64,000 nt of DNA, taken from contig OZ245006.1 in assembly GCA_965223545.1 (NCBI GenBank), positions 576,001 through 640,000 of the forward strand, read 5' to 3'. Shown one piece after another: positions 962-62,016 of the stretch (the first letter of the stretch is position 1; each line of letters opens with the position of its first letter). Source of the DNA: Planctomycetota bacterium. GTDB taxonomy: Bacteria; Planctomycetota; UBA1135; UBA2386. Below the pieces are notes generated by a model. That model did no database searches. It was not told the DNA's origin and saw only the letters and a list, made by a program, of their open reading frames with translations. Both the position numbers and the translations under genes were made by a program.

Positions 962-1163
962 CTCAGCGCGGCCGGGGCCGCAACCAAACTCGGATGCCGC
1001 TCTTGCCGGAGCGGGTTGGAAGTTCTGACACATCCGTCGCCGCGCTGAGCGCAGACGCCAGTGTTGTTTCGGAGCGTCCGGGAGTTGCGGTATCGAAGTC
1101 CTGACGACAGCGGGCCTTCGGCAATGTTGTCGCCGCTCGAAGACTCTCGGCCCCGGACGCTCA
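962..1163 (+). repeat. ~200-bp palindromic repeat, copy R1 (diverged subtype)
   Basis: ctcagcgcggccggggccgcaaccaaa...cgcgctgagc...gtgttg...tcgaag...gttgtcgccgc.cgaaga.tctcggccccggacgctca, shared with copies at 21546, 35109, 35310, 38321/39911 and 61925; CTCA at both ends. Confidence 0.9.
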
Positions 1164-21545: not shown

Positions 21546-21650
21546 CTCAGCGCGGCCGGGGCCGCAACGGAGCATTCTGCGACCCGAGCGTCGGTCGCAG
21601 GTCCGGCGGTCGCCGGCGGCCGCGCTGAGCCCGGAGGCACTGTGTGTGTC
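21546..21650 (+). repeat. ~200-bp palindromic repeat, copy R2 (left half only)
   Basis: ctcagcgcggccggggccgcaac...ggcggccgcgctgagcccggaggc, nearly identical to 38321-38420; lies between convergent genes. Confidence 0.88.
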
Positions 21651-21676
21651 AAGCTGTCGAAGCAGCCGACACCCTG

Positions 21677-33679: not shown

Positions 33680-35158
33680 ATGACGCGAACACCAGTGATT
33701 CTGTTGACCGGTGCGACCGGATACGTCGGCGGCCGCCTCCGCGCCGCCCTGGAAGCCGAGGGCGACTCGCTGCGATGCATGGCCCGGCGACCCGAGAACC
33801 TCCGCTCCCGCGTGTCGTCTTCGACCGAGGTCGTCGCGGGCGACGTGCTCGATCCCGACTCGCTCCAGGACGCTCTGAGCGGCACCAAGGTGGCCTACTA
33901 CCTGGTGCATTCCATGGGTTCCAAGGCCGACTTCGAAGAGAGAGATCGGCGTGCGGCGACCAACTTCGCAACGGCTGCGCGCGCGGCCGGACTCCGACGG
34001 ATCATCTACCTCGGGGGACTCGCCGAGCCCGGGTCGGATCTCTCCGCCCACCTTCGCAGCCGCCACGAAGTCGGCGAGATTCTGCGCACGTCCGGCTGCC
34101 AAGTCATCGAGCTGCGGGCATCGATCGTGATCGGCGCGGGGAGTCTGTCGTTCGAATTGGTCCGGTCGTTGGTCGAGCGGCTTCCCGTCATGATCACGCC
34201 GAAGTGGACCACGGTGGAGGCGCAGCCGATCGCGGTCGAAGATCTCATCGACTACTTGATGGCCTGCAGGCGGCTCGAAGGCACCGAGAACCGCATCTAC
34301 GAGATCGGAGGAGCCGATCGCGTCTCCTACGAAGGCCTGATGCGAGAATACGCCCGCCAGCGAGGCCTGCGCCGGTTCATGCTCCGCGTGCCCGTCATCA
34401 CCCCGTGGCTCTCGAGCCTCTGGCTCGGCCTGATCACGCCGGTCTTTGCCCGGATCGGGCGCAAGCTCATCGAGAGCATCAAGAGCCCCTCCGTGGTCCG
34501 CGACCCCTCGGCGGTCGTCGACTTCGACATCGAACCCACCGGGATGAGTTCTGCTATCGCCCGCGCCCTCGCCGACGAAGAAGCCTCGTTCGTTGAGAGC
34601 CGTTGGTCGGACGCACTCTCCAGCGGCGGCGACGTCGTGACCTGGGCGGGGGTCCGCTTCGGCAACCGGCTCGTCGACCGCCGCTCGCAGGTGCTCGCTC
34701 TGGAGCCCGTCGCTGCGTTCGCACCAATCCGTCGCATCGGTGGCAGGAACGGGTGGTACGCGTTCAACTGGCTCTGGAGCCTGCGCGGGACGATCGACCT
34801 CCTGCTCGGCGGCGTGGGCACGAGACGCGGGCGGTCACATCCGGACCGCGTCCGCGTCGGGGATGCCATCGACTTCTGGCGAGTGGAGGCATACGAGCCC
34901 GATCGACGGTTGCGCCTCTCGGCCGAGATGAAGCTCCCGGGAAGGGCATGGCTCGAGTTCGAAGCCAAGCCACAAGGCGCCGGCTCGGTGGTCTGCCAAA
35001 CCGCCGTCTTCGACCCCGTCGGTCTCGGCGGCCTGGCATACTGGTACCTCGTGTACCCACTGCACGCGCTCGTCTTTCGCGGCATGCTGAACGGGGTCAC
35101 GCGGGAAGCTCAGCGCGGCCGCGGCCGCAACCAAAGACCGAGCGCACCACGACAGTAG
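33680..35158 (+). CDS. NAD(P)-dependent SDR/epimerase with DUF2867-like C-terminus (YbjT-like)
   Basis: LLTGATGYVGGRL, YYLVHSM, HLRSRHEVG, GGRNGW, DFWRVE, AEMKLPGRAWLEF; last ~16 codons come from repeat R3. Confidence 0.9.
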   Translation: MTRTPVILLTGATGYVGGRLRAALEAEGDSLRCMARRPENLRSRVSSSTEVVAGDVLDPDSLQDALSGTKVAYYLVHSMGSKADFEERDRRAATNFATAARAAGLRRIIYLGGLAEPGSDLSAHLRSRHEVGEILRTSGCQVIELRASIVIGAGSLSFELVRSLVERLPVMITPKWTTVEAQPIAVEDLIDYLMACRRLEGTENRIYEIGGADRVSYEGLMREYARQRGLRRFMLRVPVITPWLSSLWLGLITPVFARIGRKLIESIKSPSVVRDPSAVVDFDIEPTGMSSAIARALADEEASFVESRWSDALSSGGDVVTWAGVRFGNRLVDRRSQVLALEPVAAFAPIRRIGGRNGWYAFNWLWSLRGTIDLLLGGVGTRRGRSHPDRVRVGDAIDFWRVEAYEPDRRLRLSAEMKLPGRAWLEFEAKPQGAGSVVCQTAVFDPVGLGGLAYWYLVYPLHALVFRGMLNGVTREAQRGRGRNQRPSAPRQ

Positions 35159-35519
35159 CGGAGCCCGCGAATCCAGCGGTGCTGGGCGGCCGCGCTGAGC
35201 CCGGAGGCCAGTGTTGTCTTCGAGCCTCCGGGAGCTGCGTTGTCGAATTCCCGGCGACGACGGGCCTTCCGAAAGGTTGTTGCCGCTCGAACATTCTCGG
35301 ACCCCGAGGCTCAGTGCGGCCGCGGCCGCAACGGTATCAAAGACCGAGCGCACCACGACAGTAGCGGAGCCCGCGAATCCAGCGGTGCTGGGCGGCCGCG
35401 CTGAGCCCAGAGGCCAGTGTTGTCTTCGAGCCTCCGGGAGCTGCGTTGTCGAAGTTCCAGCGGCATCAAGCCTTCGAAAATGTTGTCGCCGCGCGAAGAT
35501 TCTCGGCCCCGGACGCTCC
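35109..35519 (+). repeat. Two tandem copies (R3 35109-35313, R4 35310-35519) of the ~200-bp palindromic repeat, each with an empty IS target
   Basis: Direct repeat with periods of 201 and 206 bp; perfect 15-bp inverted repeat 35108-35122/35186-35200; tcgAGcctccgg at 35220-35231 and 35426-35437. Confidence 0.95.
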
Positions 35520-35548
35520 GCGACTGGCGGAACTCGGGCTTGCGGGCC

Positions 35549-36004
35549 CTACCGGCACCGCGCCGCCAGCACCGCATCGAGGGTGACGTCGTGGCGATAG
35601 TCGAAGAGCTTGACCAGCCGCGGGCGGATGACGAAGCGATCGGCGCACCGCCCCAACGCGCCGAACGGAGGGGCGTAGTCGATCTCGTCGCGAAGCCGGC
35701 ACCCGGCCGCGTGCGCGAAGAAGAGGTGCTTGTGGCGCCACTCGGCGAACGGCCCCTCCACCATGACGTCCTCGAAGAACCGGTTCTTCTCGTAGGCGAC
35801 GTGCTCGGCCACGATCGTCGTCCACGACAGCCCGATCTTGGTGCGAACCCGCACCCTCGTTCCGACCTCGAGACCCGTGGGTGGTTCGATGATCTCGGTC
35901 CGCTCCCACGGCGGCTGCAGCAGGGCGAACGCGTCCGGCCGCTCATGGAACGCGAAGACCTCCTCCACAGTGGCGGGCAACACGCTCTCCTTCACGAATC
36001 GCAC
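35549..36004 (-). CDS. SRPBCC-family protein
   Basis: VEEVFAFHERPDAF..LQPPW, FEDVMVEGPFAEWRHKHLF, D.IDY.PPFG.LG, LFDYRH. Confidence 0.85.
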   Translation of the reverse strand: MRFVKESVLPATVEEVFAFHERPDAFALLQPPWERTEIIEPPTGLEVGTRVRVRTKIGLSWTTIVAEHVAYEKNRFFEDVMVEGPFAEWRHKHLFFAHAAGCRLRDEIDYAPPFGALGRCADRFVIRPRLVKLFDYRHDVTLDAVLAARCR

Positions 36005-36057
36005 GACCCGTCCGAGTCTACCTCGAGTCGGGCCGCGAACCCGGCCTCTTCCGCTGA

Positions 36058-38325
36058 TCACAGCGGCGCGCGCGTGAACACGCCGCGACCGTAGGTGCCG
36101 ATCGCGATCTCGTTGGAGCGCGGGTCGTAGACCATGTCGGTCACGTAGGGCGTGGTCGGCAACCCGTCGTTGTAGCTCTGCCACGTGGTGCCGCGGTCGG
36201 TCGACACGAAGACCCCGAGGTCGGAGCCGATGTAGAGGTGGCCGCGATCGTCCGGTGACCACAGCACACAGCGCACGTTGATCATCGATCCCAGGTTGCC
36301 CGTGCAATCGTTCCAGGTCTCGCCGGAATCGCGGCTGCAGACCACCCGGGTTCTAGTGATCCCACTCAGCCCCGCGATGACGAGGCGCCCGGCGTCGCTG
36401 ACCGAGCCGAACTCGATGTCGGTCACCTGCTTGCCCGACCACGATCCCGATCTGAGGGTGGCGAGATGAAGCGTCGGGTTGGCCGGAGTGGAGACGCGCA
36501 TGGGAACGATGCTGCCGTCGAGCCCGACCACGATCACTTCCGCAGTCGGCGTGGCGAGCGTCGCAGCAACCTTGGTCGGCACGGTTCCGGCCGGTACCGA
36601 GAACCGCTGGGACCACGCGGTGCCGGGGCCGGGGGTGCTGTAGACCGCGCCGCCGAAGTTCGTCAGGAAGGACCGGCCAGACCAGGTCAGGTCGGCGGTC
36701 CAGGGTTGACCACTCGGCAAACCGCTGGAGAACGAGTTCCACGCGCCACACGTCTGGCTCAGCGAGGGCGGGTACTGGAAGCGAAACTGACTGGTCGATG
36801 ACAGGCCGACCAGGGTCGAGTACAGCGTGCCGTCCTTGAACAACACGTCGCCACCGTCGCAGCAGGTGATTGCGTCCCACTGCCGGAACTCGTTGGGCCC
36901 CATCTGGACGCCGTTGTCCTGGGTGCCGATCGCGTATCGAGTTCCCGCGAACTTGTTGGCCTGATCCGGATTCACGGCGAGGGTACGCACCTGCATCGCG
37001 GCCAGCGAAGTCCCGCCGACCGTCCGCCATGTCGTGCCGACGTCCTCGGAACGCACGAGGCCGCCGTCGTTGCCGGCAAAGACGACGTTTCGCTTGGTGA
37101 CGTGTGGCCAGATGCACTGCACGTCCTCGTGCGTGAGGTTCGCGGAAGCCGTCCATGTCACACCCGCGTCGGTCGAGGTGTACATCGCGCGGGCGTTGCA
37201 ACCGGTCCACACCACGTTCGGGTTCGAATCCGAGACCGCGATCGCGTTGTTGTGTCGCATCTGACCCGCCGCCGGAACCGGCGTCGTCACCTGCGTCCAG
37301 CTCTGGCCACGGTCCATCGACCGCCAGATTCCGGCCCAAGTGTCATCGGGCGCCGCGACGCTGGCGTAGACCGCGTTGTGCACCCCGATCCTCCCGGCGC
37401 CAAGCGCGATCCGCGCCAAGGCCGGCGGCGCCCCCGGCAGAGCCTTGGTGACGAACGACCCGGCGGTCCCCTGGCTGCCACTCACGTGCACCACGCCATT
37501 CCGCGTCGTCGCGACGACCGAGAAGCTCCCCGTCAACGGCTGGCCGACGACCTCGACCGCCGCCATTTGATCGACGACGACCCGGTCCCAAGTTCCGGCT
37601 TCGCCGCGGAACAATCCCTGGCTCGAGGCGACGAAGACGACGTCCGAGTTGGGATCGCCCCCCGGCTGCACGTCGATGTCGGAAACGTACGCCGTGATGA
37701 GCGAAGTGAACGCCACGCGGCTCCACGACAGGCCCCCGTCCGAGGTGGTGTAGAGCAGCCCCATGGAAGGGGCGCCCGTGCCACCGAAACCGGTTCCGAA
37801 GCTGCCGGTGCCGACCCACGCGGTTCCGGACCGGACCAAGTGGGTTTCGATCGCGCTGATCGAAGGGTGTGCGATCGCGTCGAAGGCGGGCGCCCACGAA
37901 GCCCCCTCGTCGGTACTGCGCCACAGACCACCGCTCGAGGCGCCGGCCCACAGCAGCGACGGGTTGCCGAAGTCCTGGGCGAAACTGATGATGCGACCGG
38001 TCCAAGTTCCGGCCACCGGTAGACAGCCCGCGGGCCCTTGCGCACCGACCGGTCCGACGAACTCCCAGGGCAGGGCCGCGCCGTCGGCCTCGGGTGCGCC
38101 ACCGCGAGGGTCTCCGCCGGCATACAGGTGCGCCAGCCGAACACGGGCGACTTCGGCCGCCCCCTCTGGTTGGTAGGGGTCCGTCTGCTCCGCTGCTGGA
38201 GCTGGGACGCCCTGCGCAGTGCGTTGGTCGGCGTGCGTGCATGCCACGCCGAACAGGGCCGACGCGCTGGCGGCAGCGAGAGCAGAAAAACAGGTACGAC
38301 TGGATCGCGTCGACGGGGATCTCAG
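36058..38325 (-). pseudogene. BNR/Asp-box (sortilin/Vps10-like) beta-propeller, probable lipoprotein, 5' end separated by repeat + IS insertion
   Basis: S.D.G.(T/S)W Asp-boxes, GGLWRS, GNDGG, GTQDNG, GTYGRG. There is no ATG/GTG start in front of the signal peptide; the native start is reconstructed at 40032 or 40002. Confidence 0.7.
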
Positions 38326-38436
38326 CGCGGCCGGGGCCGCAACCAAACACGGAGCATTCCGCGACCCGAGCGTCGGTCGCGGGTTCCGCGGTCGCCGGCG
38401 GCCGCGCTGAGCCCAGAGGCCAGTGTTGTCTTCGAG
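38321..38436 (+). repeat. Repeat copy R5, left half (interrupted by IS)
   Basis: Shares the conserved arms of R2-R4 up to cagtgttgtcttcgAG, then switches to IS sequence. Confidence 0.93.
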
Positions 38437-38512
38437 ATGGGATGAGAGGGTCGATCCCTCCGACGCAGTCGCCACACAATGGCGCTGCAAAATCAAAGGA
38501 GCAGATCGACCC

Positions 38513-39589
38513 ATGACCAAAGTTACCGCTCAGACCTCCCCCGTGACCATCGGTCTCGACATTGGCGATCGGAACATCCACTACTGCGCACTGGACGCGT
38601 CGCGGACGGTCGTTGCGCGGGGCAGTTTCCCGACGACGCCGACAGCGCTCTCGAAGGCGCTGAGCGACTTCCCGGGCGCCAGAGTCGCTCTCGAGGCCGG
38701 CTCGCAGTCGGCCTGGATGTCTCGGCGGTTGCGCTCGGAGGGCTACGACGTTCACGTCGTGGACCCGCGCCGAGTGCAGCTGATCGCCAAGGATCCTCGC
38801 AAGACCGACCGGCGCGATGCCGAGACCCTGGCTCGCCTGGAGGCAGGGATGCCCGAGTTGCTCGGCACGATCCACCACCGCAGCGAGCAGGCACAGGCCG
38901 ACCTGTCGGTCATTCGTGCGCGCGACCTGCTGGTGAGGATGCGGACGATGGCAGTGCAGCAGGTCCGGAGCCTGGCGAAGGGCTTCGGCGTCCGGCTGCC
39001 GTCGGCATCGACCGCGGCGTTCCCGAAGCGAGCTCGCGAGTCCATGCCGGTCCTGCTACTCACTGCGGCGGAGCCGCTGCTGGACTTGATCGCCGACCTG
39101 TCCCGCCGGATCGACGAGCTCGACAAGGCGCTCGTCGAGGCGAGCCGCGAGCGATACCCCGAGGTCGCCGTCGTGCAGCAAGTCAACGGCGTGGGGCCGG
39201 TCACAGCGACCGCGTTCGTGCTGACGATCGAGGATCCGACACGATTCGCCGAAAGCCGCCGCGTGGGCTCCTGGCTCGGCTTGTGCCCAAAGAGCTTCGC
39301 GTCGGGCGACAGCAATCCGGAGCTGTCGATCAGCAAGGCTGGCGACGGCTATCTGAGACGGCTTCTGGTGCAGTGTGCGCACTACATCCTCGGCCCGTTC
39401 GGCAAGGACTGTGACCTCCGGCGCTTCGGGCAACGCCTGATCGCCCGCGGCGGCCGCGGCGCGAGGAAACGCGCGGCGGTCGCGGTTGCCCGCAAGCTCG
39501 CGCTACTGCTGCATCGGCTGTGGCGTCATGGCTTGGTCTACGACCCACTCCACAACAGCGACCGCGTAGCTGCCCACACCGCGGTATGA
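38513..39589 (+). CDS. IS110-family DEDD recombinase/transposase (358 aa)
   Basis: AAGGAG RBS; IGLD, ALEAG, KTDRRDA (DEDD); GVGPVTA, WLGLCP..FASG (catalytic Ser), SKAGDGYLRRLLVQCA, AVAVARKLA. Confidence 0.96.
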   Translation: MTKVTAQTSPVTIGLDIGDRNIHYCALDASRTVVARGSFPTTPTALSKALSDFPGARVALEAGSQSAWMSRRLRSEGYDVHVVDPRRVQLIAKDPRKTDRRDAETLARLEAGMPELLGTIHHRSEQAQADLSVIRARDLLVRMRTMAVQQVRSLAKGFGVRLPSASTAAFPKRARESMPVLLLTAAEPLLDLIADLSRRIDELDKALVEASRERYPEVAVVQQVNGVGPVTATAFVLTIEDPTRFAESRRVGSWLGLCPKSFASGDSNPELSISKAGDGYLRRLLVQCAHYILGPFGKDCDLRRFGQRLIARGGRGARKRAAVAVARKLALLLHRLWRHGLVYDPLHNSDRVAAHTAV

Positions 39590-39890
39590 CCCAACCATGA
39601 TCGCCCCACCCCCAACCAACCGAATACCGTGGAGGAACCTGGCGTGATGCCGCTCCTGCACTGCTGAAGACTCACCGCCCGATCCCGGCGACAGCGACCG
39701 GAGGCTTGGCCCTCGAGGCCGTTATCGAGAAAGCTGCGCCGGGTCGGACGGATCTCATCGTGCACCGGTCTCGGACGAGGCCATCAGAGTGCGTATGGAA
39801 GCCTGCGGAGTCCGAAGCTTGTCGCGCAGGGCGGCGCCAAGGCGCCCAGATTCTCAAGAAGAACAGATCCACAGACAAAGAGCTGTTGAC
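39590..39890 (+). ncRNA. Predicted bridge RNA/seekRNA of the IS1111-type element (ends approximate; core about 39679-39803)
   Basis: Target loop with guides ccggaggct (39698-39706) and tcgag (39725-39729); donor loop with guides atctcatc (39752-39759) and atggaag (39795-39801); each pair brackets an internal hairpin. Confidence 0.85.
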
Positions 39891-39891
39891 G
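39886..39891 (+). promoter_or_regulatory. -35 half of the circle-junction promoter
   Basis: TTGACG; in the predicted circle it sits 17 nt before GAAGAT, which forms across the junction. Confidence 0.65.
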
Positions 39892-39910
39892 GGATCGCCC
39901 CTCTCATGGA

Positions 39911-40001
39911 AGCCTCCGGGAGCTGCGTTGTCGAAGTTCCAGCGGCATCGAGCCTTCCGAAAGGTTGTCGCCGCGCGAAGATTTGCGGACCCTGAGGCTC
40001 A
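39911..40001 (+). repeat. Repeat copy R5, right half
   Basis: AGcctccgggagctgcgttgtcgaagttccagcggcatc...gaggctca continues exactly where the left half stopped (compare 35429-35519). Confidence 0.93.
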
Positions 40002-40233
40002 CGGTGCGTTTTGCGGATGCGGGGTGTGACATGCCCCGGGCAGTGCCGCGCCGCAGCGACCGCAACACCCAACACGGCAACTTCCCCATATCTCTCACCC
40101 CTCGGTGTTGCATTCCGGCGGTCACGACACTCTCAACGAGGCGATGGCGCTTGACCGCAACACCTAGCCGACCGCTGCGCCGCGCTTCGGCGGCCACTCG
40201 GCCATACTACGGCGCAGGCGAGACCCTCCGCGA

Positions 40234-40926
40234 ATGTCAGACATCCCAGACCCCTCCGCCGCGGTCACGCGTGCCCTCGATGACGGAGACGCCCGCGCTC
40301 TCGACGAGCTCGTGGTCGCGTTGCTGCCACGGCTGGAGGCCTACGTCCACCTGAAGATGGGACCAGGCCTCCGGCAGCGTGAGGGATCGGCGGACGTCGT
40401 GCAGTCGGTGTGCCGCGAGGCTCTCGAGGGCTTGCGCGATGGCCCGTTCGAGTTCCGCGGCAGAGCGGCCTTCTTGTCCTGGCTGTTCACCACCGCGCTC
40501 AACAAGATTCGCGAGCGCGACCGATTCAATCGCCGCCAGCGCCGGGCTGCCGCACGCGAGTTGCCGGCAACCGCGATCGGCTCGGCCGCCGGCCACTTGG
40601 TGTCGCCGAGCCGCAAGCTCATGGCCCAGGAGGAGCTCGCCCGGGTCGAGCACGTCTTCGGCACGCTGTCGGAACGCGACCAAGAGATCATCATCCTCGC
40701 CCGCGTCATGGGGCTGGCGCGGACCGAGATCGCCGAGCTGCTCGGCTGCACCGCCGCCGCGGCGCGCGTCAGACTGGGACGCGCCGTGGCGCGCTTGGGC
40801 GCGGCGCTCGCAAACGCCGAAGGCGACGCCCTGCCATCACGGGCGCCGGATCGATTGCGCGGCAGCATCGACGCCGGCGAGGACGACGACTCGTCCACCG
40901 GCGCTCGACCGGACTCCTCGCGGTGA
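40234..40926 (+). CDS. ECF sigma factor (kinase-associated type)
   Basis: LRQREGSADVVQSV, FEFRGRAAFLSWLF..ALNKIR, EIAELLG....ARVRLGRA. Confidence 0.85.
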   Translation: MSDIPDPSAAVTRALDDGDARALDELVVALLPRLEAYVHLKMGPGLRQREGSADVVQSVCREALEGLRDGPFEFRGRAAFLSWLFTTALNKIRERDRFNRRQRRAAARELPATAIGSAAGHLVSPSRKLMAQEELARVEHVFGTLSERDQEIIILARVMGLARTEIAELLGCTAAAARVRLGRAVARLGAALANAEGDALPSRAPDRLRGSIDAGEDDDSSTGARPDSSR

Positions 40927-40935
40927 CCCGCACCC

Positions 40936-43900
40936 TCACCGTCCGTTCGCGAAACGATCGGCGGCTCCCGCCTCCCACTTGTGCAGAAACGCCGGCCATC
41001 CCCACCGCTCGTGGAAACGCGCGTACAAGCGGCGACCATCCCGAGACCAGGCCAAATGGCTACTCGTGCCACCGCCGAGTTCCAACAACAACGTGCCCGT
41101 CGCAAAGTCCAGGATCTTGACCTTGCCGTCTGCACCCGAGGTCGCGACGCGTTGGCTGTCCGGCGCGACGGCCACGGAGTACACGCTCGTCGACAGTCGG
41201 GCGAGCTGACGCACGACTGTCAAATCCTCGGCGTCGCGCAGATACACACCACCCCCGGCATCTCCAGTGACGATCAGCGGCTCGTCCGGCACCGGCGCAA
41301 GGTCCGCCACGCGTTGATCGGTGCGCGCAGCGGCCTCGAGCTCCCCGTCGCCGACAGCAAACCGCAGCAGCTCACCATCATCGCGGCCACAGAAGACGCC
41401 CTTGCCGTCCGCTGAGAACTCCGAGAAGGCGGGTGGCGAGGAGCCCGCGTCGAACTCGTGTCGCCAGCGCACGTCGAGGGAGACCGCATCCAGCACCTGC
41501 ACCGACATGTCGTCCCAAGAGGAGATGGCGAGACTCAGCCCGTCCGGACTCACCGAGATCGCCGAGATCCTACCGGGCACCACCCGGCGCTCACCCTCGA
41601 TCGATGCATCGCGGACGCGGAAGCGGCGCAGGATCCCATCCCACCCGACGACGAACATCGCGTCGGTCGTGAGCGCGGCTCGCTCGCCGAGCATCTCGGG
41701 CGAGGACGCCTCATGGTGCATCACGATCGCACCGGTCCGCAGCTCGCGCACCGCGATGCTGCCGTCCATCTCCGAGTACGCGACGCGCCCCGACGCAACG
41801 TCGTAGCCGACGCCGCGACAGTCCCTGCCAAGCGAGTACGAGACCAGGTCTTGCGGCGGTTTCGCCGGCCACACTTTGACCGTGCCGCCGTGCGCCATGG
41901 TCGCGAGCCGCGATCGGTCGGGGGAGAGCGCGCAGCCGAAGACGCCGAGCGCGTGGCCGTCGTAGCTGCCCAGCGGCTCTCCGGTATCGAGCTTCCAAGC
42001 GGCCACCATCGCCTTGCCCCATCCGCCGACGGCATAGAGCACGCCGTCGCTCGAGTCGATCACCATTTCCCGCACGACCTCGGGCACGCGCAACGCGTAG
42101 CGCAGCGCACCGGTGTCGGCTTCTCGCACGACGATGCGCGGGTCCCCACCGGAGAGCACGAGGAGGTTTCGGCGCGGCGCCACCCGCAGCAGTTGAGGAG
42201 CCTGCAGCAGGAAAGGCACTTCACCTGGCTCGACGAGCGTGCGTTGCTGGCCGGTCGCGAGGTCGATGCGCGCGAGACGCCCCTCTTTGTCGCCCCAATA
42301 CAAACTGTTTCCATCGGGAGCGTACTCGATGAGCACGACCCAGCCGGGGACGGGATACTCCGTGGTCGGCGAACTGGAGTCACCGAGCGATTGGATCCGC
42401 AGCGGGGCGTCCACCGTTCCCCACGCGTAGTGGGTGCCGTCCGGCGAAACCGCGATCGGAAGGTAATCCAAGCCCGACGCCAGCCTCCTCACCTTCGTCT
42501 GCGCGCTGGTGTCGATCAGGTCGGCGTAGAGGTCCCCGCCCGTCCGCCCAATCGCGATCACCCGGTGACTCTCGGTGGTCGGGACGATCGCGTAGCCCTC
42601 GGAAGAGATCGGGATCTCGGTAGCCTCGCTGGACCCCACAGCCCAGCGAAGCGGAGACGCTTTCTCCGGCGCGACCAGGAGCTCGCTATCCGACAGCCAA
42701 TGCACCCGGCCCGCGCTCGAACAGACCCCGGTCAAGGAGAACAAGGCGTCGTCGACCTGGTGCAGGATCCAGTCGTGCTCCCAGCCCCGCAGCGCCGGAT
42801 CCGTCGCCGCCAGCTGCCGCTGCGCCTCGCCCGCCTGACCGGCATCCAGCGCGAGCTTTGCCGCTCGGATCGACGTGGTGTAGGTGCCCCAGTCCGCGCG
42901 GCGCCTCTCAGCGGCGACGTTCTTCTCCGCTTGCTCGACCCGTCGGGCACCCCACAGCAGGGCGGCCGCGCCCAGCAACAGGGCCAGTACCAAGCCGACG
43001 ACGGCGACGACCGTCGCCCGGTGGCGCCGCACGAGGCGGCTGAGCTCGTAGACCAGCGTCGGACGCCGCGCGGCGATGGGCTGAAACTCCAGCACTCGGC
43101 GGACATCGCTGGCGAACGCGGAGACGGTCGGATAACGACGTTCGGGATTGCGCTCCAGGGCACAGCGCACGACGACCTCGACGTCGCCGCGGAGGTGGCG
43201 GGCCAATCGGGCCGGCGTGCTGTTTCGCTTCGACGCCAGTGCCGGAGCATCGGACCGCTTGAGCAGCAGGCGGCTCGGCGGCTCGATCTCGCCCTCCAGG
43301 ATCCGGCGAAGCCCGGCCTGCAGCGGCAGCTCCCCGACGCTGCGACGATCCTGCGGCAAGTCGCCAGTCAGCAGCTCGTAGAGCACCAACCCCAGGGCGT
43401 ACACGTCCGTCCGCGTGTCCACCGCGCCACCTTCGAGCTGCTCGGGACTCGTGTACGTGGGGGTTCCGACGAATCCTCCGGCAACGGTCAGACTCTGCCC
43501 GCCCCGCGAAGCCAATGCCTTCGCCAAGCCAAAGTCGATGATCACGGGTCGCGGCCCCTCGAGGTCGTGGGCAACGAGGATGTTCGACGGCTTCAAGTCT
43601 CGATGGATGACACCGCGCTGGTGCGCATGCGCGACGCCGGCACACACGTCGACAAACAAGCGCAACCGGGCGTCGATGTCATAGCGATGCTGGTCACAGA
43701 ACCGCGTCAGCCAAGGGCCATCGATCAGCTCCATTGCCATGAAGGGCTGTCCGTTCGTCGCGATCCCCACGTCGAACACCGTGGCGATCGCGCGGTGCTG
43801 CATCTTGGCGAGCACCTGACCCTCGGCGGCGAAGCGCACCAGCGAGTCTCGGTCCTCACAATGCCAACGCAGCACCTTGATCGCGACCGCCCGATCGACC

Positions 43901-44238
43901 GGCGCGGTCTGCCGACCGCGATACACCGTGCCGAAGCCACCTCGCCCCACGACCTGCTCGACCTCGTAGTTGTCGATCTCCGGCAGTGCGGGCGCCAAGG
44001 GGACGGCGCGCAACAACTCTTGGCCGCGCGCCAACGACTCGAACAGGGCCCGAATCGCCGCGCCGTGGTCGGGCCACTGCCGGCACAAGGCGTCGACGTC
44101 GTCGGGCCCGGTTTCGCCGCCGACCCGGGACCACGCTTCATAGCACGCCTCTTCGACGGCAGGTGGCAAGGCCGGGGACCGCGCCTCCGTCGAACCATGC
44201 CGGCCAGCGGCTGAGGAGCTAGACGAGCGACCGACCAT
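40936..44238 (-). CDS. Ser/Thr kinase with TM segment and WD40 repeats
   Basis: VGRGGFGTVY, VAIKVL, HRDLKPSN, IDFG, GTPTYTSPEQ; LRGWEH linker; SPD/WD40 repeats; start uncertain. Confidence 0.92.
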   Translation of the reverse strand: MVGRSSSSSAAGRHGSTEARSPALPPAVEEACYEAWSRVGGETGPDDVDALCRQWPDHGAAIRALFESLARGQELLRAVPLAPALPEIDNYEVEQVVGRGGFGTVYRGRQTAPVDRAVAIKVLRWHCEDRDSLVRFAAEGQVLAKMQHRAIATVFDVGIATNGQPFMAMELIDGPWLTRFCDQHRYDIDARLRLFVDVCAGVAHAHQRGVIHRDLKPSNILVAHDLEGPRPVIIDFGLAKALASRGGQSLTVAGGFVGTPTYTSPEQLEGGAVDTRTDVYALGLVLYELLTGDLPQDRRSVGELPLQAGLRRILEGEIEPPSRLLLKRSDAPALASKRNSTPARLARHLRGDVEVVVRCALERNPERRYPTVSAFASDVRRVLEFQPIAARRPTLVYELSRLVRRHRATVVAVVGLVLALLLGAAALLWGARRVEQAEKNVAAERRRADWGTYTTSIRAAKLALDAGQAGEAQRQLAATDPALRGWEHDWILHQVDDALFSLTGVCSSAGRVHWLSDSELLVAPEKASPLRWAVGSSEATEIPISSEGYAIVPTTESHRVIAIGRTGGDLYADLIDTSAQTKVRRLASGLDYLPIAVSPDGTHYAWGTVDAPLRIQSLGDSSSPTTEYPVPGWVVLIEYAPDGNSLYWGDKEGRLARIDLATGQQRTLVEPGEVPFLLQAPQLLRVAPRRNLLVLSGGDPRIVVREADTGALRYALRVPEVVREMVIDSSDGVLYAVGGWGKAMVAAWKLDTGEPLGSYDGHALGVFGCALSPDRSRLATMAHGGTVKVWPAKPPQDLVSYSLGRDCRGVGYDVASGRVAYSEMDGSIAVRELRTGAIVMHHEASSPEMLGERAALTTDAMFVVGWDGILRRFRVRDASIEGERRVVPGRISAISVSPDGLSLAISSWDDMSVQVLDAVSLDVRWRHEFDAGSSPPAFSEFSADGKGVFCGRDDGELLRFAVGDGELEAAARTDQRVADLAPVPDEPLIVTGDAGGGVYLRDAEDLTVVRQLARLSTSVYSVAVAPDSQRVATSGADGKVKILDFATGTLLLELGGGTSSHLAWSRDGRRLYARFHERWGWPAFLHKWEAGAADRFANGR

Positions 44239-44343
44239 GGGGAGAATTGTGGCCGGACCGGCGGCGGTCCGAAAGGGCAGGCGGACACACGACGGCGGCC
44301 CCTGGGAGACGACAGTGGCAAACCCCGACGCCATAGTAGTCGC

Positions 44344-45774
44344 ATGCGCCCGCATCCCGACGAAGCCGAAGCGCTCCTGGACCTGGTCCGCGACGCCACG
44401 CGCGACTACCTCGCCTCTCTAAAGGCCCGCCCGGCGCGACCGCGCGGCGCTGGCGCCGCCGCCGAGTCGTTCGCCGGACCGCTACCCGAGGACGGAGTGG
44501 GCGCCGAGGCCGCCCTGCGGGAGCTGATCGCGCGCGGCCCGGATGCGGCCGTGCACAGCGCGGGTCCGCGCTACTTCCACTTCGTCATCGGGGGCAGCAC
44601 GCCCGCTGCCCACGCGGCAGACTGGTTTGCCTCGACTCTCGACCAACTGGCCTCGGCCTGGGTCAGCTCGCCCCTCGGCGTGCGCCTCGAGCAGATCAGC
44701 TTGGAATGGCTGAAGGACTTGTTCGGCCTGCCCGCATCGATGTTCGGAGTGATGACGACCGGCGCGATGATGGCGAACTACACCGGCCTCGCCGCCGCCC
44801 GGCAGTGGTGGGGTGAGCGGCAGGGCGTCGACACGGCCCAAGACGGCATCGCGCAGTTGCCGCCGATGCAGGTGCTGACCAGCGGGCACGTGCACGCGAC
44901 GATCGACAAGGCCCTGGCCATGCTGGGCGTCGGCCGCCGCCAGGTCCGGCGCTTCGCGCGCGACGCCGCCGGGCACCTCGACGAGGACGCACTGCGCGCG
45001 GCGCTGCAAGCGCTCGACGGGGCACCGGCCGTCTTGGTCGCGAACGCCGGCGAGGTCAACACCGGCGCCTTCGACCCGATCGAGACGATGGCCGCGCTGG
45101 CGCACGAGTTCGGTTGCTGGCTGCACGTCGACGGCGCCTTCGGCCTGTTCGCGCGCACCGCCCCCGAAACCGCCGCGCTGGCGCGGGGAGTCGAGCGCGC
45201 CGACTCGGTCACCGTGGATGGCCACAAGTGGCTCAACGTGCCGTACGACTGCGGCTTCGCCTTCGTCCGCGACCGCACGCTGCTCGCCAAGGTGTTCGCG
45301 CTGGTCGCCGACTACTTGCCGGACCCGGCCGATCCACGCCCGATGTACTCGAGCCTCGGCCCCGAGTCGTCGCGGCGGGCGCGAGCGCTGGCGGTGTGGG
45401 CAACCCTGCGCGCCTACGGACGCAGCGGCGTGCGCGCCATGGTCGAGGAGCACCTGCGCCTGGCGCGCCGGCTGGCAGCGCGCGTCGACGAGGCACCCGA
45501 CCTCGAGCGGCTGGCACCCGTGCCGCTCAACATCGTCTGCTTTCGCTACAACCCCGGTGGGTTGGACCCAGCGGCGCTCGATGCGGTCAACGAGCAGCTG
45601 GCGGAGGCCGTGCTCGCCGACGGCCGGGTCTACGTCGGCGCGACGCGGTTCGAGGGTGTGGTCGCCCTGCGTCCGGCGATCGTCAACTGGCGCACGGACG
45701 ACTCGCACATCGACGAGCTGGTCGACGTCGTGCGCACCCTGGGCGCGGCCTGCAACCAAGCGCCCGAAGATTGA
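44344..45774 (+). CDS. Group II PLP-dependent decarboxylase (aromatic amino acid/glutamate decarboxylase family)
   Basis: PRYFHFV.GG, AGEVNTGAFDP, WLHVDGAFG, DGHKWLNVPYDCG, LNIVCFR. Confidence 0.92.
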   Translation: MRPHPDEAEALLDLVRDATRDYLASLKARPARPRGAGAAAESFAGPLPEDGVGAEAALRELIARGPDAAVHSAGPRYFHFVIGGSTPAAHAADWFASTLDQLASAWVSSPLGVRLEQISLEWLKDLFGLPASMFGVMTTGAMMANYTGLAAARQWWGERQGVDTAQDGIAQLPPMQVLTSGHVHATIDKALAMLGVGRRQVRRFARDAAGHLDEDALRAALQALDGAPAVLVANAGEVNTGAFDPIETMAALAHEFGCWLHVDGAFGLFARTAPETAALARGVERADSVTVDGHKWLNVPYDCGFAFVRDRTLLAKVFALVADYLPDPADPRPMYSSLGPESSRRARALAVWATLRAYGRSGVRAMVEEHLRLARRLAARVDEAPDLERLAPVPLNIVCFRYNPGGLDPAALDAVNEQLAEAVLADGRVYVGATRFEGVVALRPAIVNWRTDDSHIDELVDVVRTLGAACNQAPED

Positions 45775-61927: not shown

Positions 61928-62016
61928 GCTGCCGGGAATCCTCGCGGCGACAACCTTTCCGAAGGCCCGCAGTCGTCAGCGCTTCGATACCGCAACGCCC
62001 GGACGCTCAACAGCAC
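61925..62016 (-). repeat. Repeat copy R6 (right half, inverted; R1 subtype)
   Basis: Reverse complement gagcgtccgggcgttgcggtatcgaagcgctgacgactgcgggccttcggaaaggttgtcgccgcg...gctca matches 1072-1163. Confidence 0.85.

Follow-up and report, generated by a model that had tools for sequence, protein, structure and literature searches.

How an insertion sequence (IS) comes to lie at one fixed position within a dispersed repeat, with only two bases present at both of its ends, is the question raised by positions 38435 to 39912 of the 64,000-nt window, the whole stretch of DNA analysed here from the 8.1-Mb, two-contig genome of a Planctomycetota bacterium. The reading that is very probably correct is that of an IS1111-group element with a bridge RNA (seekRNA) recombinase that has recently spread among copies of the repeat. 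The element measures 1,476 bp between two AG cores and carries an intact gene (38513..39589, forward strand) for a 358-aa IS110-family recombinase, in which both Pfam domains scored over cut-off (PF01548, E 1e-17; PF02371, E 3e-19). The residues D16, E61, D99, D102 and S264 were invariant in eight aligned sequences, and Ser264 falls within a GL-P----SG motif of the kind described around the serine of IS1111 elements (PMC11187229). A first-pass annotation of this DNA had called the open reading frame, the DEDD residues and the catalytic serine intact, and the sequence analysis bears it out.

Relatives of the recombinase (39–78% identical) came mostly from metagenome-assembled genomes of Planctomycetota, Acidobacteriota and Chloroflexota and from metagenomes, and a relative was present in 6 of 60 related genomes. 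The best matches in plasmid records were 31–34% identical, most of them annotated as 'IS110 family transposase', and the IS621 and ISCro4 protein chains (PDB 8wt6 and 9t56) matched only weakly (E about 3-5e-8). In the host's family, the closest named relative (L001, L002 and L030) was inserted at the edge of another repeat, adjoining CTCA on the other strand. Our search found no publication on this element or its host repeat, and the supplements of two 2024 papers may list the clade.

Base-exact ends had been proposed for the element from the comparison of filled and empty sites. The left AG core (38435..38436; CT on the other strand) is followed by ATGGG (38437..38441), giving a 7-nt left extension with the core included, of which ATGGG would form the right donor half of the predicted circle junction, and then by a 17-bp sub-terminal inverted repeat (38442..38458). 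The right inverted repeat (39891..39907) differs from it by one mismatch and is followed by a 3-nt extension, GGA, and the second AG (39908..39912, with AG at 39911-39912); pairing between the two repeats extends neither outward nor inward. Two empty repeat units, at 35223 and 35429, have the sequence ttcg-AG-cctccgg, in which the flanks of the filled site enclose one AG, so that these two nucleotides are the only bases present twice. The two empty units are paralogous copies of the repeat (R3 and R4, in tandem at 35108..35519, forward strand), rather than a pre-insertion allele of the filled locus; the boundaries are nevertheless secure, because they rest on 61 empty sites and four filled copies. 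All 61 exact 12-bp empty target sites fall inside the host repeat, which covers 0.41% of the chromosome. The four copies of the element in the genome (C1:614435, 5087207, 6849572 and 7067774) are 100% identical and occupy the same AG of the repeat in the same orientation with the same two outer junctions, yet they differ in repeat allele and in outer flanks. The proposed ends thus held at every copy, as did the coordinates of the inverted repeats and the view that there is no true target-site duplication.

These features also decide the class of the element. Sub-terminal inverted repeats with extensions of 7 nt on the left and 3 nt on the right, and no true duplication, define the IS1111 group (PMC11187229), and the assignment that had been made from this geometry agrees with that definition as it is given there. 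The non-coding DNA is distributed as in IS1111 elements, with a long downstream part (323 nt) against 78 nt upstream of the gene, and the use of a specific target and orientation with a short core, instead of a variable duplication, is that of the IS110 family (four of four copies, and the AG ends of the relatives). Judged on its sequence, then, the element is a member of the IS1111 group.

The repeat that received the element is about 200 bp long, and its two parts now lie at 38321..38434 (forward strand; nhmmer, repeat-profile positions 2-117), where the last 5 nt form the left target half, and at 39913..40001 (forward strand), where the first 7 nt form the right target half and the end is CTCA. 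A profile of the repeat gave 194 hits in 141 loci of C1, single or in tandem arrays of up to six, and five occurrences in the window (962-1162, 21546-21654, 35108-35519, 38321-40001 and 61931-62014). Units begin and end with CTCA, which adjoining tandem units have in common, and the flanks beyond are unconserved (77 complete arrays). The predicted fold of one copy consists of two long hairpins (z -2.2), the second of which has the insertion site at its base. The repeat holding the second copy of the element (C1:5087207-5087258) has a deletion in the left hairpin, so that retention, at least, does not require a complete left hairpin.

The full repeat was matched in none of 40 relatives, while 8 of 60 genomes from the family carried its 21-nt head, one to five times each. 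Of four head loci inspected, three go on in the manner of a repeat head, one of these within a tandem array, and the fourth is apparently a chance match; related heads were seen in genomes G017, G018 and G072. In searches for a mobiliser, all 14 Y1 transposase hits lay at least 6.8 kb away from any repeat, no listed multicopy element was bounded by CTCA, none of 12 spaced pairs of heads plausibly framed a gene (judged by open reading frame only), and no viral contig carried the head motif. We presume that the repeat behaves like a REP/BIME-type or miniature element. The filled unit lies between a gene for a BNR/sortilin-repeat protein (36058-38230, reverse strand) and one for an ECF sigma factor (40234-40926, forward strand), the latter convergent with an open reading frame that by eye resembles a Ser/Thr kinase with beta-propeller repeats (40936-44355, reverse strand).

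The ends found at this locus recur in relatives inserted elsewhere. An unseeded inverted-repeat search recovered the same type of sub-terminal ends in 19 of 27 relatives, and when the search was seeded with the first five letters of the inverted repeat, but not with AG, both ends could be placed in 76 of 116 near-full-length loci. Among loci with enough flank, 69 of 74 had AG at -7/-6 and 69 of 75 had it at +4/+5; the set includes three of the host's own copies and some duplicate loci, and the flanks themselves were widely different. In all, 47 of 123 loci were left out for a partial open reading frame or no detected inverted repeat; stricter tblastn settings gave 28 loci, and the wider locus set was used for the counts. 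In two relatives the core differs at both ends (GG in L061, CG in L068), and the target and donor guides described below are changed likewise.

Filled and empty sites alone cannot separate a recombination core from a fixed 2-bp duplication, in which a staggered cut followed by fill-in would copy the AG and the protein would pick the repeat by its sequence or hairpin shape. The position of the site at the base of a predicted hairpin would suit such a choice, and a target hairpin is reported to add specificity for ISPpu10 (PMC12288879 / 10.64898/2026.03.19.712850). However, a duplication would copy whatever bases stood at the site, whereas the AG pair is fixed across very different targets, is written in the guides and changes with them, and we therefore treat it as a core. 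The protein is of the DEDD/Ser and not the DDE type, which together with the sub-terminal inverted repeats and the fixed core sets the element apart from DDE-type insertion sequences with true target duplication; an IS66 element inside the fourth copy shows by contrast what such a duplication looks like (8 bp). Hairpin choice is countered by the reconstructed targets of the relatives, only 13 of 47 of which fold better than z -2, and a general hairpin requirement at targets is not supported by this count. A 2-bp duplication is thus extremely improbable, and the core reading is used in what follows.

Site choice is instead most probably explained by an RNA encoded in the right end of the element, whose guides the first-pass annotation had not identified. 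The core of the predicted bridge or seek RNA spans 39670..39815 (forward strand, ends approximate), with a target-binding loop followed by a donor-binding loop. Target guide 1 (39698..39706, forward strand) is a 9/9 complement of the core plus 7 nt of right flank and would pair with the top strand; target guide 2 (39723..39729, forward strand) reads in the same sense as the core and the 5 nt of left flank before it, and would pair with the bottom strand. A short hairpin separates the two, and the top-strand guide precedes the bottom-strand guide, which is the order given for IS1111 (PMC11187229). At the 38435 locus guide 2 is identical at five of seven positions, with one possible G:U wobble and one mismatch; the non-identical positions number two of seven at three of the genomic sites and one of seven at the fourth (copy 4, 6/7 identical).

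The association between guides and flanks was evaluated in 53 non-redundant elements, obtained from 76 after 14 with missing flanks or unmatched cores were dropped and nine duplicates removed; these relatives are not independent of one another. Guides matched their cognate flanks better than non-cognate ones (6.04 versus 4.17 nt and 6.40 versus 4.32 nt), a level reached in none of 10,000 permutations, and the wrong-strand controls gave p values of 0.45 and 0.12. The association held in 35 elements less than 65% identical with distinct targets and with the host's own element excluded. When the alignment was made blind to the target, 16 of 7,884 column pairs passed Z>4: seven make up the complement diagonal with right-flank positions 1-7, six the same-sense diagonal with the left flank and core, one the core of a donor guide, and two are off-diagonal. 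Mismatches and wobble pairs are common, because the exact match of guide 1 is shorter than 7 nt in 33 of the 53 relatives.

The second loop of the predicted RNA may read the element itself. For IS1111 elements, a bridge RNA in the right end with possible donor-binding bases has been predicted (PMC11208160). Here donor guide 2 (39795..39801, forward strand) is an exact copy of the element's final 7 nt, and the same identity was found in 51 of the 53 elements, including all seven with non-modal ends, although its first two letters belonged to the alignment anchor. Candidate donor guide 1 (39752..39760, forward strand) complements the core and left end at 7 of 9 positions; its covariation is the weaker of the two signals, with Z up to 4.9 in an alignment whose anchor was misplaced in some rows. 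Consensus stems closing both loops showed two-sided changes at 10 of 18 pairs in 31 sequences, which none of 500 shuffles reached and which exceeded all slid controls, a signal inflated by relatedness and by the derivation of the structure from the same alignment. The 31 sequences are those of the 53 that remained after 10 of the 41 with the anchor motif were removed by eye for long or misplaced segments. The fold of the single non-coding end was no better than its shuffles (z -0.64), and Rfam gave no match within 35000-40300.

The donor-like matches might still go unused, with the RNA selecting the target only and the protein recognising the ends through the inverted repeats. This seekRNA model draws on ISEc11, for which an 82-nt seekRNA suffices and for which target matches alone are reported in the available text of PMC11187229, and the imperfect donor guide 1 of the present element (7/9) would agree with it. 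Against this, donor guide 2 adjoins a conserved stem and tracks the element end in seven of seven non-modal cases, including two different core changes, though the five cases with AGA ends may share ancestry. We consider target selection alone rather unlikely, and favour an RNA that pairs with both target and donor. Within the clade, target and donor guides can be read in 53 natural variants, the core has changed naturally in two, and the predicted junction promoter is conserved; such variants support donor pairing in the RNAs of IS1111 elements, on which the emphasis of the two 2024 papers is not the same. The compact IS1111-type recombinase is also a candidate for testing programmable insertion.

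With these parts the events at the locus can be ordered, the ends, core, single target site and covarying guides being read from the DNA and the later steps drawn from IS621 and ISEc11. As in these studied relatives, the recombinase would join both ends through the AG core to give a circle, whose junction would set a -35 box 17 nt from a weak -10 and so drive expression of recombinase and RNA. In the next step the target loop would pair with both strands of the repeat around AG and the donor loop with the junction of the circle; the element would be inserted by strand exchange at the 2-nt core, which leaves AG at both ends without new bases. The mechanism is already published, and the element is a clean further example of it.

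The predicted junction promoter has its -35 box, TTGACG, at 39886..39891 (forward strand). A hexamer within one mismatch of TTGACA lay 27-28 nt from the end in 41 of the 53 elements, against a background of 0.24% per position, and a spacing of 17-18 nt places the -10 across the predicted junction. Here the -10 would be GAAGAT, which matches three of six consensus letters at a spacing of 17 nt. In five elements the box is nearer the end (21-24 nt), with altered left ends and, by eye, a better -10 further in. A sigma-70 scan of the linear element returned no site.

Movement through a circle by conservative recombination, as first proposed for this element, fits the insertion but stands only in part, since excision is disputed in the literature on ISEc11 and IS621. 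For ISEc11 the empty target is not regenerated on excision (PMC11187229), and for IS621 a 2026 preprint describes mainly copy-out with single-strand circles; PMC13626964 assays both products. In our data the circle junction (39912 to 38437) was absent from Logan contigs of three runs (X1, X4 and X5), which drop rare forms, and no reads of one RNA run (X17) aligned; neither observation is evidence of absence. The exact junction was also absent from the genome assembly. No footprint of the IS1111 element was found in the host repeats. A joint skipping 38435-39910 was present in the three runs and was considered as excision, but it is explained by the paralogous empty repeats.

Whether the element is alive bears on the same data. 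A dead or immobile remnant, whose copies owed their spread or uniformity to recombination between repeats or to collapse in the assembly, would account for the missing junction in the contigs of the three runs, and 100% identity could stem from consensus collapse during assembly. Yet the four copies sit in distinct repeat alleles with distinct outer flanks, and short-read depth over the element was about 3-4 times that of the unique flanks in two runs (124 versus 32-37; 1,163 versus 390-420), which fits a copy number of four. The open reading frame, ends, guides and promoter box are intact besides, and a remnant is highly improbable. From the complete identity of the copies we infer recent or current activity of the element.

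The fourth copy (C1:7063615-7067774, L139) departs from the others. It is split by the 2,491-bp IS66 element mentioned above, and at its end the last 183 bp are repeated in tandem, with an exact join of the right end, AG, and then the base that follows the AG of its own target guide 2. At this internal site guide 2 is matched fully and guide 1 at two of seven flank positions. The 183-bp unit lacks the target loop and retains the donor loop together with the -35 box and the right end. A similar join was found in one of 72 right flanks tested (that of relative L024, 2856-2908), at an internal AG that is not that of its guide; it lies only 52 nt from a contig end and represents either a tandem unit or a partial circle junction. 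The duplication joint of copy 4 was absent from short-read contigs, and contigs X1-6 and X4-12 run unbroken through the place, so that an assembly error or a rare clone is possible. It is conceivable, though doubtful, that guide-encoding DNA acts as a built-in half-match target and that in copy 4 the recombinase fused the right end with the guide-2 AG of the same element. If this were true, IS1111 elements in nature would be targeting the genes of their own guides and releasing donor-loop modules, and the 183-bp unit could exist as a donor-loop-only minicircle supplying split RNA for excision.

The repeat is also used by a second, unrelated IS110 element (500 aa, 1,940 bp, 11 copies) with a long 5' non-coding end, which inserts near the 5' end of the repeat without duplicated bases relative to the common empty form. 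One repeat unit (C1:6847323-6851137) carries both IS110 elements, 96 bp apart. Two empty repeats (R4 at 35333-35337, and C1:537456 on the reverse strand) hold exactly the first 5 bp of the second element at its site. These inserts are possibly footprints of its imprecise excision, and a 5-bp remnant would fit excision at an AT that lies five bases in from the left end and matches the AT of the right end; alternatively, they may reflect a rarer repeat allele or gene conversion. The 5' end of the second element matches its own right end over 9 nt (reached in 2 of 2,000 shuffles), while its target matches were not significant alone (190 and 166 of 2,000 shuffles), and none of 300 genomes held a relative at E 1e-60. 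A third IS110 family with 23 copies (e.g. C1:517396 and 3913148; also L124 and L125) targets a different, short palindromic repeat. The gene of a Y1 transposase at C1:1729907 is flanked by that palindrome too, and another Y1 gene (C1:3914571) lies between two copies of the third family, an arrangement like that of a RAYT/REP locus. More open leads come from the uncharacterised host repeat and from the footprints attributed to the second element than from the IS1111 element itself.

Among known systems, the element is closest in organisation to ISEc11, ISPa11, ISKpn4 and ISPst6, with which it has in common the geometry of the inverted repeats, the long 3' non-coding end, the guide order and the serine motif (PMC11187229); a junction promoter like theirs is predicted here. 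ISPa11, like the present element, targets a dispersed repeat (REP) (PMC11187229). It differs from members of the group in the length of its inverted repeats (17 bp versus the usual 11-13), in protein size (358 versus 330-350 aa), in target and in its Planctomycetota host, and donor-matching RNA segments are evident here that the available text of PMC11187229 does not report. The bridge recombinases IS621 and ISCro4 likewise have a predicted counterpart here of their two-loop RNA, in which the guides to the target and to the donor overlap a 2-nt core (PMC11208160, PMC13626964), and the likeness extends to the core, CT on the other strand, and to a first guide of 9 nt that includes it. In contrast to these, the RNA lies in the right and not the left end, the guides read the DNA in the opposite sense relative to gene orientation, the inverted repeats are long and the similarity of the proteins is distant. 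The joins in copy 4 and L024 resemble tandem non-coding units beside IS110 transposases with a one-sided donor match (10.64898/2026.08.14.744561) and half-match recombination (10.64898/2026.08.31.748434) in that the right end is attached, through an AG, to a site inside the same element; the internal AG of copy 4 is the core of its own target guide 2, a feature unmentioned in the accessible text of both. Finally, the host repeat, about 200 bp with two hairpins, direct CTCA bounds, no Rfam match and no mobilising gene found, differs from the targets of ISPpu9 and ISPpu10, while the element agrees with these and other repeat-targeting IS110 elements in being inserted at one set position of a palindromic, intergenic repeat that occurs in many copies (PMC12288879, 10.64898/2026.03.19.712850, PMC1525189), and partial modules that keep one element end are common to both.
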